Of a stretch of DNA of 64,000 bases, positions 6,817 through 48,572 are shown piece after piece. The notes under the pieces are model-generated. The model worked only from the letters and a program-made list of their open reading frames with translations. It did no database searches and was not told the DNA's origin. Each line of letters begins with the position of its first letter. The stretch's first letter is position 1. The position numbers were made by a program, and so were the translations under genes. Source of the stretch: an uncultured Bacillales bacterium (GTDB lineage: Bacteria; Bacillota_I; Bacilli_A; RF39; UBA660); assembly GCA_905206805.1 (NCBI GenBank), contig CAJLIR010000001.1, positions 3,198 through 67,197 of the forward strand, given 5' to 3'.

Positions 6817-6893
6817 GTCCTCGTAGCTCAGTAGGATAGAGCGAGTGCCTCCTAAGCACTAGGCCGTTGGTTCGATTCCAATCGGGGACGCCA
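6817..6893 (+). tRNA. tRNA-Arg with anticodon CCT.
   Basis: Cloverleaf read by eye. Acceptor GTCCTCG/CGGGGAC, D-arm GCTC/GAGC, anticodon stem AGTGC/GCACT with loop CTCCTAA (anticodon CCT), T-arm GTTGG-TTCGATT-CCAAT, and an encoded CCA. Confidence 0.85.
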
Positions 6894-8202: not shown

Positions 8203-9342
8203 GTGTTAAACATGGAAAGAAATAAAACAACAAATATTGCGTTATTTGCAAAATCATTTTATTTGCTAGGAGATAGCTTAAATTTTTGTTATGATTGCAA
8301 ATACTGTAGATTGAATTATGAAAAATGTACCGAAAAACATTATAATATATTGCCAAGTGAAATAAACCCAATTTTTACAAATATACCGATTGCGATAAAT
8401 TTATTTTATGGTGATCCTTTATTACAAATTGAGAATACAATAAATTATTTGGAAATGTTAGAAAAAGTTAAACATAAAGGACCTGTTATAATTATAACAA
8501 AGGGTGATTTTAAAAAATTTCCAGATATAAAATTTGATCTAGATTTGCATGTAGCTTTTTCTACATTTGGAATAGATTCAGAACTTGATGGTAATACCAT
8601 GGAAAGATTTATAAATAATTTAAAAGAAACAAAAAATAGAAAAAATAATTATAAATACTCAATAGAATTTAGACCAATTATCTATAATATTAATGATTCT
8701 TATGAAGTATTTGATAGGATATTAAGTCTTGCAAGTGAATATGATTTAGCAATAGGTTATTCAGGATTACAGGGCAAACCTGAAAGTGTTAAAATTTGGG
8801 AAAGAGATAAAATTGAATTGAGTCCATACCCTGGATTTCAGTTTGGTCATAAAAAAATCATCGACGAAAAAGTTATAAATTTGTTTGAAAAAATGGCACA
8901 ACAGAAAAATGTACCAATATTTAGAAAAACTTCTTGCTTATTTTCTTATGTTCATAATTTAGAAAGAGACTATAATGCTCATTATTATAGACCTAATGAA
9001 ATGGGTTGTCATAATTGTGTAATGAATAATAAATGTCAAAATTTTAAGAATAGTTTGTCACAAAATGTTAATTTATCAAATATAATTCCTTTTCAATATG
9101 AAATTATTAATAAGAAAAAACATGAATGCATTTTAAAAAAATCTGGTGTCTGCAATTTTCCAACTGATGATTGTAGTAATATAAATGGAAATCTTATTCA
9201 TATCCCAGAAATTATTAGTATTTCAGATGTAAGATTAATTAAGTGGTTAACAGGTTATACAGTTGATGCAAATTTTTTTGAATCTTATGAAATGAGTGAA
9301 AAATGGGTAACAAATAAATCTTTGATTTTAAAAAGAAAATAA
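8203..9342 (+). CDS. Cys-rich hypothetical protein, radical-SAM-like, with a non-canonical CxxCxxC motif.
   Basis: CYDCKYC lies at residues about 29-35. A GDPLL motif follows about 40 residues later, in the position of the radical-SAM GGEPLL glycine-rich motif. Extra C-terminal Cys clusters are present (CHNCVMNNKC and CILKKSGVCNFPTDDC). No confident family assignment is possible. Confidence 0.35.
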   Translation: MLNMERNKTTNIALFAKSFYLLGDSLNFCYDCKYCRLNYEKCTEKHYNILPSEINPIFTNIPIAINLFYGDPLLQIENTINYLEMLEKVKHKGPVIIITKGDFKKFPDIKFDLDLHVAFSTFGIDSELDGNTMERFINNLKETKNRKNNYKYSIEFRPIIYNINDSYEVFDRILSLASEYDLAIGYSGLQGKPESVKIWERDKIELSPYPGFQFGHKKIIDEKVINLFEKMAQQKNVPIFRKTSCLFSYVHNLERDYNAHYYRPNEMGCHNCVMNNKCQNFKNSLSQNVNLSNIIPFQYEIINKKKHECILKKSGVCNFPTDDCSNINGNLIHIPEIISISDVRLIKWLTGYTVDANFFESYEMSEKWVTNKSLILKRK

Positions 9343-9417
9343 ATATAAATCTATTTACTTTGATAAATATAATTTTATATAATAATATAAGATGTATTTT
9401 TTTTGGGGAGAATTTAT

Positions 9418-9684
9418 ATGAAAAATCGAATTATAATTGTGGAAGGATTACCATCTACTGGTAAGAGTACAACTACTAAATATATAGCTGAAAATCTAAA
9501 TATAAAATTTGTTGATGAAAGTGATGAAAATCATCCTGCTGATTATGTATATAGGGATTTTATTAACAATAAAATATTAAAAAAATTAGGAATAAATTAT
9601 ATTGTTATAGAAAGTGATCATAAGAACTTTAATAAATCGTATAAAAAAATAATGAGTTGTATTGAAAATTATAGTAGAAAATGA
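9418..9684 (+). CDS. Small P-loop NTPase, nucleotide-kinase-like fragment.
   Basis: Walker A motif GLPSTGKST. Only 88 aa, and it ends 12 nt before the next ORF, so a split gene is possible. Confidence 0.4.
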   Translation: MKNRIIIVEGLPSTGKSTTTKYIAENLNIKFVDESDENHPADYVYRDFINNKILKKLGINYIVIESDHKNFNKSYKKIMSCIENYSRK

Positions 9685-9695
9685 GGTAACAATAT

Positions 9696-10544
9696 ATGAT
9701 AAAAGATAAATATGAATTGCTTTTAAAACTTATATTAAAAATAGAAGCTGCTTATCAATTATTTTTCTATGATGAATTTAATGATTATTATTTATGTTTA
9801 GACGAAATTATGATTTTACTTGATGAATTAAAATTAAATAATAACGATCTTTGTTATTTAAAAAATATTAATCATCAAATATTTATTGATAGAAAATATT
9901 TTAATAATAAATTTGAAAATAATAAACATAGGTTATTTATAGAAAAAAATATAAATAATTGTAATGAAAAGAAATTAAACTTTGATTTTGATTTGATAAA
10001 AAAATACATAACAAATAATTATTATATATTTAACTTTTTAGATAATCCTAGTGAAAATGAAATTGAAGAACTTGCAATTTTAAATCCGAATGTCTTGTAT
10101 TTAGTCTTAAAAATAAATAACAAAATGTTATTAAATGTTTTAAAGAAAAACTATAAGGCCTCAGCGATACTTGATGGATATATTGTTTTAGATTGTAATG
10201 ATACTTGTGGTGATCAATTTTATGTTGATGATTATGCCTATAAAGATTCATATATTACAAAAAATAAAACAAAGTTTTTAAAAAACAAAAATATATATAA
10301 CTTGTATATAAACTGTCTTAAAAAATATTTATCAGATAATGTTTTAATTTACATACATTTATCTTCTTATGCTAGAAATAGTATAGAACTTGCTAGGTAT
10401 GTACTAAGTATTAATCCAAAACTATTAGTTTATACAGGTGATGATATAAAAAATAATAAAGAAATAATGAAAGATATGATTAAAATTGATAAAAATAATA
10501 CTTATTATTTAGGTAAAAAATTAAAAAATTTAAAAGAAATTTGA
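9696..10544 (+). CDS. Hypothetical protein.
   Basis: A 282-aa ORF with no recognisable motifs. It may be the C-terminal part of a gene split from 9418..9684. Confidence 0.35.
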   Translation: MIKDKYELLLKLILKIEAAYQLFFYDEFNDYYLCLDEIMILLDELKLNNNDLCYLKNINHQIFIDRKYFNNKFENNKHRLFIEKNINNCNEKKLNFDFDLIKKYITNNYYIFNFLDNPSENEIEELAILNPNVLYLVLKINNKMLLNVLKKNYKASAILDGYIVLDCNDTCGDQFYVDDYAYKDSYITKNKTKFLKNKNIYNLYINCLKKYLSDNVLIYIHLSSYARNSIELARYVLSINPKLLVYTGDDIKNNKEIMKDMIKIDKNNTYYLGKKLKNLKEI

Positions 10545-20550: not shown

Positions 20551-20559
20551 TTAAGTATA

Positions 20560-20770
20560 TTAATTATTGATTTAGAGGAGTAATAATATTTATTTTTAAG
20601 AGAAAATACGGTTGGTGAAAGTATTTAAATCAAATATTATGAAAGACACTAATGTTAGATAATCGTTTTCTGCGTTAAAGAATGAGTGTATAGTTATCTA
20701 TAAAATAAGGTGGTACCGCGATAATTCGTCCTTATATTTTATGGATTTTTTTTATTAAATTTTAAAAAGG
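20560..20770 (+). ncRNA. T-box riboswitch leader of the hisS-aspS operon.
   Basis: Conserved T-box sequence AAGGTGGTACCGCG at about 20706-20720. Upstream AGAGA/GGTGA stem I elements are present. A candidate specifier region reads GAAAGACACU. Confidence 0.8.
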
Positions 20771-20780
20771 AGTATAGTTT

Positions 20781-22061
20781 ATGATACAAAAAGCAAAAGG
20801 AACTTATGATTTATTTGGTGAAAATGGAAAAAAAGTAATATATTTAAAACAATTACTTGAAAGCGTAATGAATAAATATAATTATGAATATATAAAAACA
20901 CCTATTTTTGAATCTAGTGAATTATTTCATAGAGGCGTAGGTGAAACTAGTGATATAGTTTCAAAAGAAACTTACGATTTTGTCGATAGAGGAAATCGTA
21001 ATATGACTTTAAGACCAGAAGGAACTGCCGGTGTAGTTAGAAGTTTTATTGAAAATAAAATGTATGGTGAAGGTAGTATGCCTATAAAATTATGGTATTT
21101 TGGTCCAATGTATCGCTACGAAAGACCACAATCTGGTAGATATCGTGAATTTTTACAGTTTGGTGTTGAAACATTTGGTAGTAATGATCCTATGATTGAT
21201 GCTGAAATAATAAGCATACCAGTTAATTTTTATAAATTACTTGGACTTAAAGGCATTAAAGTTAATATTAATACACTAGGTGATACAGAATCAAGACTCA
21301 AATATCGTGAGGCTTTATTGAATTATTTTAGACCACATATTGATTCATTATGTGAAGACTGTAAAAAAAGATTTGAAAAAAATCCACTTAGAATATTAGA
21401 TTGTAAAGTAGATCATGATTTAGATATAATGAAAAATGTTCCTAAAATATATGACTATTTAAATGAAACAAGTAAAAAGCATTTTGAAGATGTACAAAAA
21501 TATTTAAAATGTTTAAATATAGAGTATGTAGTTAATCCTAACATTGTTAGAGGACTTGATTATTATACTCATACTGTTTTTGAGGTAGAAGCTTCAGTTG
21601 CTGGATTTGGTAGTCAAAATGTTTTGGGTGCTGGTGGCAGATACGATGGATTAGTGGAAACGATAGGAGGCCCTTCTACTCCTGGAGTAGGATTTGCACT
21701 TGGAATTGAAAGATTATTAACAGCTCTAGATTATGAAAATATTAAATTACCAATAGATAATGAATTAGACATATATATAATTCCTATGAACGATGAAGCA
21801 AAAGGATATTCAAGTTATATATTAAATAATATTCGTATGAATGGTTTTAGTTGTGATATAGATTATATGTCAAGAAACATAAAAAGTAATTTTCGCCAAG
21901 CTGATAGATTAAAGGCAAAATATGTTATTATTGTTGGTGAAGACGAAATAAAAACAAAACAATTAACTATTAAAAATAATAATACAAAAGAAGAATTTAA
22001 AGTTAGTGAAGAAGATATAATTGAATTTTTTGATGAGATGATTGATGACTATCATGAATAA
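20781..22061 (+). CDS. hisS: Histidyl-tRNA synthetase.
   Basis: Class II aaRS motifs (TLRPEGTAGVVR, FGPMYRYERPQSGRYREFLQFGVE, GGGRYDGL). Length 426 aa. Confidence 0.95.
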   Translation: MIQKAKGTYDLFGENGKKVIYLKQLLESVMNKYNYEYIKTPIFESSELFHRGVGETSDIVSKETYDFVDRGNRNMTLRPEGTAGVVRSFIENKMYGEGSMPIKLWYFGPMYRYERPQSGRYREFLQFGVETFGSNDPMIDAEIISIPVNFYKLLGLKGIKVNINTLGDTESRLKYREALLNYFRPHIDSLCEDCKKRFEKNPLRILDCKVDHDLDIMKNVPKIYDYLNETSKKHFEDVQKYLKCLNIEYVVNPNIVRGLDYYTHTVFEVEASVAGFGSQNVLGAGGRYDGLVETIGGPSTPGVGFALGIERLLTALDYENIKLPIDNELDIYIIPMNDEAKGYSSYILNNIRMNGFSCDIDYMSRNIKSNFRQADRLKAKYVIIVGEDEIKTKQLTIKNNNTKEEFKVSEEDIIEFFDEMIDDYHE

Positions 22062-41566: not shown

Positions 41567-42331
41567 ATGGAAGAGAAAAAATTAGATTTAAGTATAGCTA
41601 CTATATTACAAATTTTAACAGTTTCATTAACAGGATTAACATTATTTTGTACATTTATAGATTATATAAGTCAAATGATATGGTTTGATTATTGGAGTAT
41701 AGATAAAGCTTTTTTTAATCAAAACTTATCAAACATTACAAATAACCTAATATATTATTTTTTTGTTACACTAATTTTACTGTTTCCATTTATTAAATAT
41801 TTTAAAAATCTTTATTATAAAGAAAAACTCAGTAGTCGAATTAAATCATATATTTTATTTACTGTCATTTATACATTCTTTTTTATACAAAATACAGCAA
41901 TTTTTAATTCTAAAAATGAAGAATTTCTTGTATATTTTTTTGGTTTATTATTGTGTTTAAAACTAATGAAAATATATATATATAAAATTATTAAATTCAT
42001 TGATAAAATGAAAGAAAAGGACTATATTTTTATTACATATAGAGAAATAATAGAAAATATATTAATATTTTTTGTAGTAATATTCATATCATTTTCTCTA
42101 ATAGGTTTACTTAAACCTTTTTTAAAAAGAGATTATAAAATTATTGATAATGATAATTCTTGCAATACAATTTTATATTCTACGCAGGATTATTACATAG
42201 TAGCAGAATGTAAAATTGAACAAAATGATTTAATTATTTATAAAGATTTACAAAGAAAAATAGATAATTATGACATCGCTTATCAAACAAGAAATTTTAA
42301 TTCTATAAAAATAAAAACTTCGAAATATTAG
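41567..42331 (+). CDS. Hypothetical membrane protein.
   Basis: An RBS AGGAGG lies upstream of the ATG at 41567. Several TM helices and no recognised motifs. Confidence 0.4.
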   Translation: MEEKKLDLSIATILQILTVSLTGLTLFCTFIDYISQMIWFDYWSIDKAFFNQNLSNITNNLIYYFFVTLILLFPFIKYFKNLYYKEKLSSRIKSYILFTVIYTFFFIQNTAIFNSKNEEFLVYFFGLLLCLKLMKIYIYKIIKFIDKMKEKDYIFITYREIIENILIFFVVIFISFSLIGLLKPFLKRDYKIIDNDNSCNTILYSTQDYYIVAECKIEQNDLIIYKDLQRKIDNYDIAYQTRNFNSIKIKTSKY

Positions 42332-42381
42332 TTCTATTCTAATATTTTTTTTATAAAATCATATAATTAATTGGTGATATT

Positions 42382-43146
42382 ATGGACAAAGCTACAATTT
42401 ATTCATTTTTGCTTACAACTATTGCAGGATTATCAACAATTATTGGTAGTTTAATTATATTTATAAAAAAATATGATAAAGATAAAATTATATGTGCTTC
42501 ATTAAGTTTTGCATCTGCTGTTATGATAACTGTGTCATTAACTGATTTAATTCCATCAGCACTTAGTCTTTTTAGAGAAAAATATGTAACAATTTTTTCT
42601 ATTATTTTATTATTGATAGGCATTAATTTAGGATTAATTTTATCTTTTTTAATAGATAAATATTTACCTGATAATGATTTAAAAACAAATAATAAAAAAT
42701 TATATAGAGTAGGGATAATTTCGATGTTAGCAATTATTTTACATAATATTCCTGAAGGTATGGCAACATTTATGGCGAGTAATACCGATATTAGTCTTGG
42801 TATTTCATTAACTATTGCAATAGCTTTACATAATATACCAGAAGGAATTAGTATATCAGTACCAATTTATTATGCAACAAATAGTAAAATAAAAGCTATA
42901 TCTTATACTGCTCTATCTGGATTATCAGAATTATTTGGTGCAATAATAACATATCTTTTTTTAAAACCATTTATTAACGATATAATTATGGGATTATTAT
43001 TTTCTATAATTGCTGGTATAATGATGCACATATCACTATACGAATTATTTCCAACGTCATTAAAACTAAATAATAAAAAAATAACTATTTTTTCTTTTAT
43101 TTTTGGAATATTATTTATGACTATTAATCATTTAATTTTTAATTAA
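42382..43146 (+). CDS. zupT: ZIP-family zinc transporter ZupT.
   Basis: HNIPEGMA and HNIPEGISIS motifs within TM helices. Length 254 aa. Confidence 0.85.
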   Translation: MDKATIYSFLLTTIAGLSTIIGSLIIFIKKYDKDKIICASLSFASAVMITVSLTDLIPSALSLFREKYVTIFSIILLLIGINLGLILSFLIDKYLPDNDLKTNNKKLYRVGIISMLAIILHNIPEGMATFMASNTDISLGISLTIAIALHNIPEGISISVPIYYATNSKIKAISYTALSGLSELFGAIITYLFLKPFINDIIMGLLFSIIAGIMMHISLYELFPTSLKLNNKKITIFSFIFGILFMTINHLIFN

Positions 43147-43162
43147 AATAGAGTAGGGAATA

Positions 43163-43192
43163 ATAAAAAGAGACATTTGTCTCTTTATTTGG
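43163..43192. terminator. Rho-independent terminator after zupT.
   Basis: AAAGAGACA-ttt-GTCTCTTT followed by ATTT. Confidence 0.6.
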
Positions 43193-43194
43193 GT

Positions 43195-43361
43195 TATCTG
43201 CAATCTTTATTATCAAAATTATTGTTTTTGCAGTTAGTAATTATATTGTTTGATTCATTAGTAAATCCAACATTGTCATTATGACGAGCATTACTGTTAG
43301 CTGTGTTACTAATTTTATTATTTTTAGTAGCTTTTGATTGCATTTTACTATTCTTTTTCAT
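43195..43361 (-). CDS. Possible small N/K-rich protein of 55 aa.
   Basis: ATG with an upstream GGGTGA RBS, translating to MKKNSKMQSKATKNNKISNTANSNARHNDNVGFTNESNNIITNCKNNNFDNKDCR. Not in the ORF track because it is under 60 aa. Confidence 0.25.
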
Positions 43362-43413
43362 TCTTGATCACCCAATAATATTATTAACCATTATCAATTA
43401 AATATTCATTTTT

Positions 43414-43529
43414 TATGCAAATAAAATTAAAATTAAAATTGTAATGACTATTGTTGCTATAATTAATGCTAAAAAGGCGTACAATAATTTTCCTACACTA
43501 GAACGTATAATACTTTTAATATATTCCAT
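43414..43529 (-). CDS. Possible 38-aa hydrophobic peptide (small membrane protein or type I toxin-like).
   Basis: RBS AAGGAAG lies 9 nt upstream of the ATG. Translation MEYIKSIIRSSVGKLLYAFLALIIATIVITILILILFA. Confidence 0.3.
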
Positions 43530-43898
43530 TTTTAAATCTTCCTTATTATCATTAGTTAACATAATATAAATTATACGAAGTAAATAATATAATCATTTAT
43601 ATATATATGTTAATCAAATCATTAATATAAAACCAATTAATATTACTATATAAATATATATAATTTTTTAATAAAATTATATATTATGAACATAATATTA
43701 ATATCTTACTATGTATATAATAATTCATAAAATACTATATTTATTTAACAAATTTTACTGCTAAATATCATTTAAATTAATATAATTAATATAATAGATG
43801 TATTATAATTCAACTACAATAATTATTTTGTTAAAACTCTAGTAAAACATCAATAAAAACTAATAGGGGACATTTATATATAATTCCCCTATTTTCTA

Positions 43899-44675
43899 TT
43901 AATTTACTTTTCTAGATTGAATTTCAGCTATTTTTTCAAAAACTTCTGCTGCATTTTGACTACTAATTTCATTATAACCAAGTTCTCTTAATGCTTGAAC
44001 TTTTATTGTGTTTAATTCAAGTGTACGACTCATTTTTTCTTCCATCTTATGTTCAATTTGATTTACAAAACGTTTATGAGATTCAGCCAATCTAGTTTTA
44101 GAAGCACCACCATTATTATATAAGGACATTGCTGAGAACATTATACTTTCAAAAATAAATTGTTCATCTTCATTAAATGCAAATTCAGTTGGTTTAATTG
44201 CTCCGGTAGCTTTAGCCATATAAGCCAAAATATATTTTAGTTCTTTACTTGTTTCCATAGTTTGTAAATAATAATACAAATATCTATAAGCATTATATGT
44301 ATCTGAATCATTATCATCATCAAGATTTTCCCTTAATAATTCAATTATATTATGCAATAATTCTTTTTGCTTTTTTCCAATTCCATTATATAAATTACTA
44401 TCTACAACTTCACTTTTTTGAGAATTATCAAATAAACTATTTAACCTTGTTTCGACACTTAAAATATAATCTGTGTCTACTTTTATATTCTGAACATCTT
44501 CTGCTGATTTAACCCCTAATAAATTTAGTAATAAAACTTTTTTATCTTTTGGCCATTTATTAATATCATCTAACTCCAAATAATTATAAATCATTTGTCT
44601 TGATACACCTAATACTTTTGCTAATTTAACTTTTGATATTCCTAGTTCGTGTAATATATCATTTAGTCTATTCAT
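43899..44675 (-). CDS. XRE-family helix-turn-helix transcriptional regulator with an uncharacterised C-terminal domain.
   Basis: N-terminal HTH LNDILHELGISKVKLAKVLGVSRQMIYNYLE. RBS AGGAGGG precedes the ATG at 44675. Confidence 0.75.
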   Translation of the reverse strand: MNRLNDILHELGISKVKLAKVLGVSRQMIYNYLELDDINKWPKDKKVLLLNLLGVKSAEDVQNIKVDTDYILSVETRLNSLFDNSQKSEVVDSNLYNGIGKKQKELLHNIIELLRENLDDDNDSDTYNAYRYLYYYLQTMETSKELKYILAYMAKATGAIKPTEFAFNEDEQFIFESIMFSAMSLYNNGGASKTRLAESHKRFVNQIEHKMEEKMSRTLELNTIKVQALRELGYNEISSQNAAEVFEKIAEIQSRKVN

Positions 44676-46863: not shown

Positions 46864-47265
46864 TTATTTTAACTTTGAATTAATTAATTTTCTGATTGCT
46901 TCAATTTCCTCATATTTATCATCTATTTCATTTTTATAATTCTTAGATATTTTATAAATAGTAATTAATGCGGATATATATGATGAAATCGATACAATAA
47001 TTCCTAGTGTAGAAAATCCTTGTATTATTAAAAATAGTCCGAAAATTAATAAGATTAAAAATGTTATTGATAAAATAATTAATTGTAATTTGTTTTTGTG
47101 CTCTTGCTCTAATTCAGTAATTCTTAATTTAAGATAATCTAATTGTTCATCTTTAGTCAACTGCATTTTTTCCATATTGGCTAATACATTATTATAAACT
47201 ATTTGACTTTTAGATTCATCTTTACTTCCAATGCTTATATTTATACTACCCTTTTCCTTTTTCAT
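46864..47265 (-). CDS. Hypothetical protein with a coiled-coil N-terminus and a C-terminal TM helix.
   Basis: 133 aa. A consensus TTGACT-17-TATAAT promoter and a GAGGGA RBS lie upstream. Confidence 0.45.
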   Translation of the reverse strand: MKKEKGSINISIGSKDESKSQIVYNNVLANMEKMQLTKDEQLDYLKLRITELEQEHKNKLQLIILSITFLILLIFGLFLIIQGFSTLGIIVSISSYISALITIYKISKNYKNEIDDKYEEIEAIRKLINSKLK

Positions 47266-47440
47266 ATAATCCCTCTTTCTTGAGGTATTATTATATATTT
47301 TTTATGTATAAAAGTCAATAAAAATTACTATTTTACAATAGTTACCCAAACAAATTAATAAATTTAATACTATATTCTAAAATACAGGTATTAAATTTAA
47401 TTTTTTATAATTATTTAGCTTCATATTTCTAAATTATTAT

Positions 47441-47512
47441 TTTCTTTTTTTCGCAAAATCACATAAACCACACCAAATAACAAGTGCTATTATTAAAATT
47501 GTTCCCATTTTA
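47441..47512 (-). CDS. Possible 23-aa Cys-containing hydrophobic peptide.
   Basis: Strong RBS AAGGAGGAT followed by ATG. Translation MGTILIIALVIWCGLCDFAKKRK. It lies divergent to the repeat array. Confidence 0.3.
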
Positions 47513-47541
47513 CTATATATATCCTCCTTAATTTTGTTTAA

Positions 47542-47709
47542 ATTTTAATACAATTTAATATAACATAGATTTAAAACTAAAGTACAATTAAAAAGAATTA
47601 AAGAACTGTTTTAATACCATTTAAGATGACATAGATCTAAAACATATCGAATAAGACCAGTCTGTAGATAATTGTTTTAATACCATTTAAGATGACATAG
47701 AGAGTTAAA
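47542..47709 (+). CRISPR. CRISPR-like mini-array: three 36-nt direct repeats and two 30-nt spacers. It is orphan, with no cas genes in the window.
   Basis: Repeat 1 at 47608-47643 is GTTTTAATACCATTTAAGATGACATAGATCTAAAAC. Repeat 2 at 47674-47709 matches it at 29 of 36 positions and is degenerate at its 3' end. Repeat 0 at 47542-47577 matches at 31 of 36. The period is exactly 66 nt, with spacers at 47578-47607 and 47644-47673. Confidence 0.45.
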
Positions 47710-47746
47710 ATAAAGCTTTAAGCCTAAATGCTCACATTATGTGTTC

Positions 47747-47768
47747 GACTGTTTAGCAGTCTTTTTTT
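47747..47768 (+). terminator. Short hairpin and T7 tract downstream of the repeat array.
   Basis: GACTG-tttag-CAGTC followed by TTTTTTT. Confidence 0.4.
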
Positions 47769-47876
47769 ATGTCTTCAACTTAATAAAAAAGCTACTACAA
47801 AAACTTTTCAAGTCTGTACTAGCCCTTAAACAATTTAATTTTATCATTTTATACGACATATTTCAACAAATTTCGC

Positions 47877-48572
47877 TTAAGAATTATATTTTTTACGTCC
47901 TTTAAAAAATATCTTACAAATTTTTATAGAATCCTTTATTGGATTAAATCTTGAATGTTTATTTTTATTTATATAAACTGTATTAATAGTAATTTCAATT
48001 ATGTTAATATGTTTTTTTATGCAATAAATTAATACATTAGTTTCAAAATCAAATTTATTACCATCTAAATAACATAACTCTTTAATTAAACTATTTGGAT
48101 ATATTCTAAGTCCTGTTTGAGTATCTGATATATATTTTTTATAGAATATTTTAAACATTCTTGATGTAATTTTATTTCCAAGTTTAGATTTTAATGGAAC
48201 AATCTTTAAATTAAAATTTCTAACACCTAATATTAAACTATTATTATCGAAAAAATTCATTAATTTAAAAGTATCTTCTATTAAATGTTGCGAGTCATCA
48301 TCTAAGGTTATAATTCCATCATATTTATCTTTTAAATTTCTTATATAATATCTAAATCCAGTTTTTAATGCTGCACCTTTTCCTAAATTAATTTGATGAG
48401 TTAAAATGGTACAGTACTTTAAATTTTTTAAATCTTCAAATATTTTTTTATCTTTAGATCCATCATCAACAATTAAGATTTTTAAAAAACCACTTTTATA
48501 TAAGTCTTTAACATACTGAATTAATGAGTTTGTGGGATTAAATGATGGAATAAGCGGTATAATTTTTTTCAT
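47877..48572 (-). CDS. Family 2 glycosyltransferase.
   Basis: GT-A fold signature ...ILIVDDGSKD... and a DxD-type motif ITLDDDSQH. Length 231 aa. Confidence 0.8.
   Translation of the reverse strand: MKKIIPLIPSFNPTNSLIQYVKDLYKSGFLKILIVDDGSKDKKIFEDLKNLKYCTILTHQINLGKGAALKTGFRYYIRNLKDKYDGIITLDDDSQHLIEDTFKLMNFFDNNSLILGVRNFNLKIVPLKSKLGNKITSRMFKIFYKKYISDTQTGLRIYPNSLIKELCYLDGNKFDFETNVLIYCIKKHINIIEITINTVYINKNKHSRFNPIKDSIKICKIFFKGRKKYNS

Follow-up and report, generated by a model that had tools for sequence, protein, structure and literature searches.

The window (the whole stretch of 64 kb of DNA analyzed here, with a G+C content of about 24%) contains, in the gap between two minus-strand genes, three 36-nt units that start at positions 47542, 47608 and 47674 and alternate with two unique 30-nt intervals, with a spacing of 66 + 66 nt, i.e., an exact 66-nt period. 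The locus comprises the following features:

46864-47265, minus strand: gene for a 133-aa protein, one flank of the locus
47340-47541, minus strand: trailer of the CRISPR island
47437-47508, minus strand: 23-aa open reading frame (ORF) within the trailer, MGTILIIALVIWCGLCDFAKKRK, with the ribosome-binding site AAGGAGGA
47542-47577, minus strand: degenerate terminal (trailer-end) CRISPR repeat, GTTTTAAATCTATGTTATATTAAATTGTATTAAAAT in the minus-strand sense, with 5 mismatches to the canonical repeat
47578-47607, minus strand: spacer S1, AGTTCTTTAATTCTTTTTAATTGTACTTTA, the oldest spacer and the last one in every CRISPR-bearing conspecific allele, intact or cas-less
47608-47643, minus strand: canonical type II-A repeat, GTTTTAGATCTATGTCATCTTAAATGGTATTAAAAC in the minus-strand sense, identical to the repeats of intact arrays
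47644-47673, minus strand: phage-derived spacer S2, AATTATCTACAGACTGGTCTTATTCGATAT, with a 29/30 match in an IMG/VR contig
47674-47700: 27-nt stretch common to the anti-repeat and the CRISPR repeat, the probable deletion junction that would hold both end-points (about 6 kb lost)
47674-47768, plus strand: tracrRNA gene minus its promoter, identified by an Rfam alignment, a terminator call and identity with the tracrRNA of intact alleles
47674-47711, plus strand: tracrRNA anti-repeat, with the upper stem extending to 47700, an AGAG bulge and the lower stem UUAAAAU
47715-47723 and 47733-47743, plus strand: nexus hairpin and hairpin 2 of the tracrRNA
47747-47761, plus strand: tracrRNA terminator, followed by T7 at 47762-47768
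47877-48572, minus strand: gene for a 231-aa GT2 glycosyltransferase, the other flank

A 22-nt core of the units is present in three copies in the 64-kb window, all within these units, compared to a mean of 0.01 in shuffled sequences, and three copies are reached in none of 100 shuffles of the window. The geometry and coordinates given in the initial annotation are confirmed, and the core is not scattered over the window as a dispersed repeat would be. The mismatches of the left unit (47542) are spread along its length, and the right unit (47674) is identical to the central one over the first 28 nt, the divergence (6 mismatches) being confined to the last 8 nt. The neighboring genes are housekeeping ones (GT2, amidase, SpoIIM, tRNA methyltransferase, topoisomerase and MutS), and their synteny is kept in all alleles of the locus; such flanks contradict an origin as a virus-borne mini-array or solitary repeat unit, which would lie on a phage, prophage or plasmid. 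The longest ORF of the window, 849 aa, is MutS, and no cas homolog is detected in the 64 kb, in agreement with the initial annotation: a tblastn search with the conspecific Cas9, Cas1, Cas2 and Csn2 proteins yields a best E-value of 0.16 (1.4 for Cas9). Having repeat units without nearby cas genes and a foreign spacer, S2, the element is an orphan or remnant CRISPR array; lacking cas9, cas1, cas2, csn2 and a leader, it does not count as a complete type II-A system.

The reverse complement of the central unit, GTTTTAGATCTATGTCATCTTAAATGGTATTAAAAC, is very close to the published repeat of the Streptococcus pyogenes type II-A system, and this likeness places the crRNA on the minus strand. A comparison of the canonical repeat with the Rfam family CRISPR-DR22 gives a score of 30.8 bits, which is under the gathering threshold. 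On the plus strand, the third unit reads on as ...GACAUAG-AGAG-UUAAAAUAAAGCUUUAAGCCUAAAU..., downstream of which come two hairpins and U7; this is the layout of a tracrRNA, with anti-repeat, bulge, lower stem, nexus and terminator. The Rfam family RF02348 (tracrRNA) aligns at 47675-47768 on the plus strand over positions 1-92 of the 92 in the model, with 30.8 bits (E = 0.013), a score below the gathering threshold of 70. RNAcofold predicts a repeat:anti-repeat duplex of -41.9 kcal/mol, in which a bulge separates an upper stem of 28 pairs from a lower stem of 7; the same bulged architecture, at -39.5 kcal/mol, is predicted for the S. pyogenes pair. Moreover, the sequence is that of the tracrRNA encoded immediately upstream of, and antisense to, cas9 in the intact alleles described below; the identical RNA gene there has both an adjacent cas9 and a TGnTAnnWT promoter, whereas the copy in the window has neither. 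By its predicted structure, though not by the Rfam threshold, the window carries a tracrRNA gene. Thus, the three direct repeats of the initial annotation exist as three 36-nt units but include only two CRISPR repeats, the third unit being the anti-repeat of the tracrRNA gene (47674-47711, plus strand). Similarly, the hairpin with a T7 tract noted on the right side is the sole terminator-like site in 47200-48000, but it terminates the tracrRNA gene rather than the array.

An alignment of 80 distinct homologs of the tracrRNA (constructed with MAFFT) shows that GUUAAAAUAA is invariant and that the nexus, hairpin 2 and terminator covary. In this alignment, 87.1% of the cells are paired, compared to 31-50% in slid controls, the number of double-sided changes is 134 compared to 16-27, and the observed covariation score is reached in none of 500 shuffles. 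These counts refer to a hand-specified structure, which was used because RNAalifold run on the same alignment returned only the terminator and a spurious 5' hairpin. The conservation of the anti-repeat is not counted as evidence because the search pattern fixed that stretch, and the folding of the single sequence (z = -1.46) is uninformative alone.

A search with the exact sequences of the 231-aa GT2 and 133-aa flanking proteins identifies 20 human-gut metagenome contigs from the same organism, among which the site between the two genes is polymorphic. Five contigs carry an intact locus (L002, L003, L004, L006 and L013) that consists, along the minus strand of the window, of the antisense tracrRNA gene, cas9 (1340 aa), cas1, cas2, csn2, a 79-nt leader ending in ATTTGAG, and the array. 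Pfam identifies Cas9 with the REC, PI, RuvC, HNH and bridge-helix domains as well as Csn2 (PF09711, 1.4e-17), and the system is therefore of type II-A. In these alleles, the promoter of the tracrRNA, on its own strand, is TTGACA, which overlaps the cas9 ATG, followed after 17 nt by TACCAT; across species, it is conserved as an extended -10 element, TGnTAnnWT. Two kinds of cas-less alleles are present: type A, with a 610/611-nt gap between the flanking genes (the window, L001, where S2 has a one-base variant, and L020), and type B, with a 544-nt gap (L016, L017, L019 and L141, the last from a JGI metagenome). In addition, three variant alleles (L011, L014 and L015) contain about 590 nt of unrelated DNA in place of the sequence from the tracrRNA through the array, and two alleles (L012 and L018) are empty sites with a 79-nt gap. 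All CRISPR-bearing alleles have in common S1, the degenerate terminal repeat, and a 277-nt trailer with the 23-aa ORF; the trailer accompanies the array in both intact and cas-less alleles and is missing from the empty sites. Consequently, several details of the initial annotation have to be read differently. The unit described as degenerate throughout does have scattered mismatches but is an ordinary terminal repeat, which closes, unchanged, the arrays of the intact alleles L002, L004 and L013. The 23-codon ORF exists but is not divergent, being co-directional with the array and downstream of it. The spacers vary between arrays save for the shared oldest spacer S1, unlike the strain-conserved segments of a structured or regulatory RNA.

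The intact alleles represent an ordinary S. pyogenes-like type II-A locus. The repeats have the same length of 36 nt and a close sequence (GTTTTAGA.CTATG....T..AATGGT....AAAAC), the spacers are 30 nt long in both, the duplex bulge is the same, and both tracrRNAs contain GUUAAAAUAA, the nexus and the terminator; the gene order, Csn2 and the leader ending in ATTTGAG, the leader-anchoring sequence of S. pyogenes, are shared as well. The window differs from the S. pyogenes locus in the absence of cas9, cas1, cas2, csn2, the leader and the tracrRNA promoter, and in the in-register fusion of the tracrRNA. What remains of the array in the window is one canonical repeat, the terminal repeat and two spacers; the 79-nt leader is missing.

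In the intact alleles, the sequence at the end of the anti-repeat reads ...CTATGTCATCTTAAATGGTATTAA[G/A]AC|AACTTAATGG...ATG(cas9), or, more fully, ...TTTAACTCTCTATGTCATCTTAAATGGTATTAA[G/A]AC|AACTTAATGGTATCATAAAATTGGAGGTATGTCAATATG, where the closing ATG is the start of cas9. In the window, the same anti-repeat, ending in ...AAAAC, is followed directly by AATTATCTACAGACTGGTCTTATTCGATAT (S2), the canonical repeat at +66, S1 and the terminal repeat. In plus-strand coordinates, the sequence to the right of 47674-47700 is the tracrRNA body as in the intact alleles, and to the left, S2 stands where the intact alleles have the tracrRNA promoter and the cas9 start. Since the tracrRNA gene runs against the array, its anti-repeat and the CRISPR repeats stand in the same orientation in the DNA as direct repeats (27 nt identical), with the entire cas operon between them. 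When the intact allele L013 is recombined in silico by a single crossover that joins the anti-repeat to its penultimate repeat, the product is 544 nt long; the cas-less allele L019 agrees with it at 541 of 544 positions, and the window less one spacer-repeat unit at 543 of 545. In the model based on L002, the deleted segment is 6020 nt long. An assembly artifact is unlikely: the junction is identical in the window, L001 and L020, i.e., in independent samples and assemblers, and the shared 27-28 nt fall short of the final k-mer lengths that the contig names indicate (k119-k141, SPAdes).

Taken together, these observations suggest, with a probability of about 0.88, that a type II-A CRISPR-Cas9 locus once occupied this site and that the element is its scar, left by a deletion between the tracrRNA anti-repeat and a CRISPR repeat. 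The ancestral order on the minus strand would have been the GT2 gene, the antisense tracrRNA, cas9, cas1, cas2, csn2, the 79-nt leader, the array, the trailer and the 133-aa gene. A deletion with both ends inside the 27-nt homology would have cost the locus about 6 kb, and a further 66 nt per unit lost, namely the tracrRNA promoter, cas9, cas1, cas2, csn2, the leader and all spacers but the two oldest ones, and would have left behind the tracrRNA body joined in register to S2, the repeat, S1 and the terminal repeat. The most likely cause is recombination between direct repeats, which could be of the RecA type or result from replication slippage. Given the lack of Cas9, the adaptation genes, the leader and the tracrRNA promoter, the remnant is most likely inactive for immunity now. 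A parental array containing S2 was not found in the JGI metagenomes and the 20 conspecific contigs searched, which counts against this model.

Searches for protospacers are in line with the CRISPR origin of the element. S2 matches, at 29 of 30 positions, the IMG/VR contig IMGVR_UViG_3300045988_170415 (L140:6444-6473), within a 451-aa ORF immediately downstream of the gene for the large subunit of terminase, which identifies it as a genuine phage-derived spacer that is neither structural nor regulatory. Two spacers of the intact conspecific array in L013 partly match the same contig (26/30 and 22/30). In all three protospacers in L140, the 3' flank has G at position +3, a weak hint at an NNG-type PAM and the minus-strand orientation. 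The S2 protospacer was reached only through the 5' 21-mer of S2, the exact 30-mers of S1 and S2 and the 3' 21-mer of S2 being absent from IMG/VR; in GenBank phages, both spacers yield only matches at chance level (E >= 0.6). For S1, no protospacer was found in either source. Within the 64-kb window, S1 and S2 match nothing but themselves, so that no regulatory target is evident, and the other spacers show only chance matches of 13-21 nt. The window offers no support for self-targeting as the cause of the loss of cas genes: none of the 474 spacers of related arrays matches the 64-kb window beyond S1 and S2.

The same fusion recurs in other species. A scan of one genome per species with a 24-mer common to the repeat and the anti-repeat yields at least 119 stretches; those listed come nearly all from uncultured gut metagenome-assembled genomes (MAGs) of the 'Bacilli', 'Tenericutes' or 'Mycoplasma sp. 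CAG:956' type. Among the matches listed, L031 is the nearest relative of the window sequence, with 92% identity along 4.5 kb, and its match begins at the anti-repeat. The classification covers 84 anti-repeat sites among the matches listed; three listed sites at stretch ends were left unclassified. At 61 of the 84 listed sites, a cas9 ORF of about 1340-1360 aa follows the anti-repeat, preceded by the conserved promoter and the ribosome-binding site GGAGG, although the count includes L077, which has neither G34 nor the promoter and where the ORF is probably not cas9. At 11 of the 84 listed sites (L052, L055, L058, L069, L110, L113, L117, L118, L120, L126 and L134), there is no cas9 and the anti-repeat is followed by an in-register unique 30-mer and a repeat at +66; the fusion in L134 retains at least 8 repeats. 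Another 11 listed sites have neither a full-length cas9 ORF nor a repeat at +66, and two of these (L063 and L100) still have the promoter, with an ORF cut down to about 350 aa that is probably a cas9 pseudogene. Among the matches listed, position 34 of the unit is A, as in arrays, in 10 of the 11 fusions and G in 59 of the 61 cas9-linked sites, and the TGnTAnnWT promoter of the tracrRNA is found in none of the 11 fusions as against 59 of the 61 cas9-linked sites. The tracrRNA bodies and the spacers differ among the fusions (only L069 and L126 are near-identical), which implies that most of them are independent events. Structural decay does not differ significantly between cas-less and cas9-linked tracrRNA bodies (p = 0.2 and 0.9); as an exact 24-mer served to find the sites, this comparison is uninformative. 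The absence of decay fits recent events yet is also compatible with retained function.

Position 34 bears on the mechanism as well. The one-spacer cas-less alleles L016, L017 and L141, as well as L120 from another species, retain the native G34 of the anti-repeat and would have to result from a crossover in the last 2-3 nt of the homology, from mismatch correction or from another mechanism. Conversely, the intact allele L013 has A34, which suggests gene conversion between an array repeat and the anti-repeat that was not accompanied by deletion. For RecA-dependent recombination across 6 kb, 27 nt of homology is little, a point that counts against the scar model.

A different explanation is that the element is still a working module, with the tracrRNA and two crRNA units transcribed and used in trans by a Cas9 encoded elsewhere in the genome, in a manner comparable to the orphan CRISPR2 array of Enterococcus faecalis that is served by CRISPR1-cas9. 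The tracrRNA body is indeed intact and identical to that of the intact alleles, the cas-less tracrRNAs of other species (at sites found through the exact 24-mer) lack detectable decay, S2 still matches a phage at 29 of 30 positions, and, with the view of the genome being 64 kb, a second cas9 may lie outside the window. However, the leader and the conserved TGnTAnnWT promoter, whose -35 box overlaps the cas9 ATG, are deleted, and the promoter scan reveals no replacement directly upstream of the anti-repeat. Furthermore, among the matches listed, which come from incomplete MAGs, the assemblies with fusions contain no second, cas9-linked site with the same repeat, and the polymorphism beside intact and empty alleles is what recent loss would produce, so that this explanation appears very unlikely. 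Under a related but distinct proposal, the tracrRNA::array fusions are the OFF state of a population-level switch, in which the cas operon behaves as an excisable cassette. The homology arms of the scar (the tracrRNA body on one side, the terminal repeat and trailer on the other) could allow recapture of the cas operon from cas-positive relatives or, alternatively, a Cas9 that enters the cell might be served by the retained RNAs. Both the undecayed state of the cas-less tracrRNAs and the coexistence of intact, fused and empty alleles are compatible with such a switch but do not demonstrate it, and we consider it a speculative and unlikely possibility.

The deletion could also have been the work of a mobile element whose site-specific recombinase recognizes CRISPR repeats as attachment sites: after integration into a repeat, the element would have excised aberrantly with the anti-repeat as a pseudo-site, and general recombination between direct repeats would have played no part. 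There is a precedent for this in S. pyogenes, where prophages integrate into type II-A repeats and aberrant excision leads to the loss of spacers (bioRxiv 10.1101/2020.10.09.333658). In the organism analyzed here, a Resolvase-domain ORF begins about 85 nt past repeat 1 of the intact array in L006, and the array of L013 contains a 550-nt foreign insert; besides, alleles with G34 do not fit easily with simple homologous exchange. Nevertheless, the junction in the window contains neither a remnant of an element nor an att-like duplication, and the array-type base in 10 of the 11 listed fusions is predicted by exchange anywhere in the 24 nt upstream of position 34, which makes the involvement of a recombinase very unlikely. 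The relics resulting from the two routes would be identical. Finally, the plus-strand terminator after the units and the presence of three repeat-like units could be taken to indicate a plus-strand orphan array with three repeats, a regulatory RNA resembling a crRNA, comparable to scaRNA, tracr-L or CreA, or a repeat RNA of a new kind, as envisaged in the initial annotation. This interpretation is almost certainly incorrect: the terminator belongs to a tracrRNA that is found beside cas9 in at least 59 genomes; the repeat sense, together with the leader and the terminal repeat of the intact alleles, puts the crRNA on the minus strand, with which the weak PAM hint (G at +3 in three flanks) agrees; no further matches to the spacers exist in the 64-kb window; and the site is polymorphic, this arrangement being a derived one. 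The promoter proposed on the left (TTGTTT-16-TAATAT) is not called by the promoter scan, and a regulator of the scaRNA, tracr-L or CreA type is contradicted by the absence of an effector at the locus and of a spacer target in the window. Because the conspecific allelic loci show a complete type II-A system at this exact site, the options of a novel RNA or a crRNA-like regulator are superfluous, whereas the possibility, also raised initially, that the element is CRISPR-derived, type II-like and perhaps a remnant array is borne out. Overall, the initial interpretation is partly supported.

Thus, what appeared to be an orphan array can be explained as a relic, with the annotation corrected with respect to the strand, the number of repeat units and the tracrRNA. 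Orphan arrays, such as the I-F arrays of Escherichia coli and CRISPR2 of E. faecalis, are likewise chromosomal, lack adjacent cas genes and have cognate cas genes in other strains; they differ from the element in the window, a two-spacer stub fused to a promoterless tracrRNA with no evident function, in being free-standing, expressed, and functional in trans or anti-cas. In E. coli, the I-F orphan arrays are left after cas loss (PMC8616872). The closest described analog comes from cas-negative Francisella genomes, where the remnant of a lost type V-A system is a solitary repeat unit beside the last degenerate repeat (Shmakov et al., bioRxiv 10.1101/2023.03.03.530964). In both cases, there is a cas-less scar in which a repeat-like sequence upstream of the effector is joined to the trailer-end repeat, and which is recognized through cas-positive relatives. 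However, the Francisella system belongs to type V-A, and its upstream element is a solitary repeat unit the role of which is unknown there, whereas in the window this part is a type II-A tracrRNA anti-repeat and spacers have survived; moreover, the event has occurred repeatedly, in many species. The loss of spacers by recombination between repeats is well known as array contraction (PMC12477760), in which, similarly, the DNA between two direct repeat copies is lost; in the window, by contrast, one partner is the anti-repeat outside the array, and the whole cas operon is lost, not spacers alone. The full-text literature searched, mostly non-subscription, contains no explicit description of a deletion of a type II cas operon between the anti-repeat and a repeat, although a precedent may exist.

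The element itself is an ordinary relic of a known kind, and it is the recurrent route of cas9 loss that is modestly interesting. Wherever an antisense tracrRNA is encoded upstream of cas9, the anti-repeat and the array repeats form direct repeats around the whole cas operon. This arrangement would provide a simple route for the rapid loss of Cas9 immunity that can be diagnosed from sequence and is recurrent in this lineage of uncultured gut Bacilli. The signature of a past CRISPR-Cas9 system is a tracrRNA body followed by an in-register spacer, with the array-type base at the junction, and in the species analyzed here, intact, fused and empty alleles exist side by side.

The tracrRNA anti-repeat in L013 (L013:2092-2127), a contig of the same organism that carries an intact type II-A allele, has A at unit position 34, the base that is characteristic of the array repeats. 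By contrast, the intact alleles of the L002 type and, among the matches listed, 59 of the 61 cas9-linked sites of other species have G at this position. The presence of A34 in an intact allele suggests gene conversion between the array repeats and the anti-repeat that occurred without deletion.

Insertions are present in the array of L013 and, apparently, at a repeat of L006:
L006:7795-8372, Resolvase-domain (serine recombinase) ORF, starting about 85 nt past the first CRISPR repeat
L013:9073-9622, 550-nt non-CRISPR insert located between two repeats, within the array
The L006 allele is otherwise intact, and one of its CRISPR repeats appears to have been the insertion site of a mobile element or prophage, similarly to the phage integration into type II-A repeats of S. 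pyogenes (bioRxiv 10.1101/2020.10.09.333658). The small ORFs of the L013 insert are on the opposite strand.

A third kind of cas-less allele is represented by L011, L014 and L015 (about 8985-10001 in each), where the region from the tracrRNA through the array is replaced by approximately 590 nt of unrelated DNA, so that only the terminal repeat remains; the 23-aa ORF next to this repeat is frameshifted. The replacement DNA contains a 111-aa ORF with no Pfam match. In the empty-site alleles L012 and L018 (9921-10001), the GT2 gene and the 133-aa gene are separated by 79 nt only. At both borders of the CRISPR island there are imperfect copies of a direct repeat, AAATT(T)GT(T/A)(G/A)AAATA (about 47335-47345 and 47860-47876 of the window), which could be a mark of insertion or of microhomology-mediated complete deletion.

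The following features flank the remnant array in the window:
47866-47838, minus strand, promoter-like site (TTGAAA-17-TAAAAT, TG upstream), right past the GT2 stop codon
47824-47817 and 47798-47791, minus strand, arms of a long hairpin followed by a T-run, after the promoter-like site
47437-47508, minus strand, 23-aa hydrophobic ORF MGTILIIALVIWCGLCDFAKKRK, directly downstream of the terminal repeat
The hairpin with its T-run (within 47784-47866) looks like the GT2 terminator, opposing that of the tracrRNA. The 23-aa ORF is preceded by a strong ribosome-binding site, AAGGAGGA, and by an extended -10-like sequence, TGTTATATT, inside the degenerate terminal repeat; it accompanies the island in cas-less as well as intact alleles, and has the variants A8S and V10A.

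Elsewhere in the window, at about 42000-44000, the sign of the GC skew flips and gene orientation converges, giving this region the appearance of a replication terminus. Two other strains have a filamentous-phage-like element encoding Zot and Rep (L015:13735-20402 and L016:13955-20402) inserted here, with the 258-aa gene on one side and the Zip transporter gene on the other. Only two Rfam matches across the window exceed the gathering score:
6817-6890, plus strand, tRNA gene
20559-20736, plus strand, T-box leader (101.7 bits), upstream of a 426-aa ORF (20781-22061)
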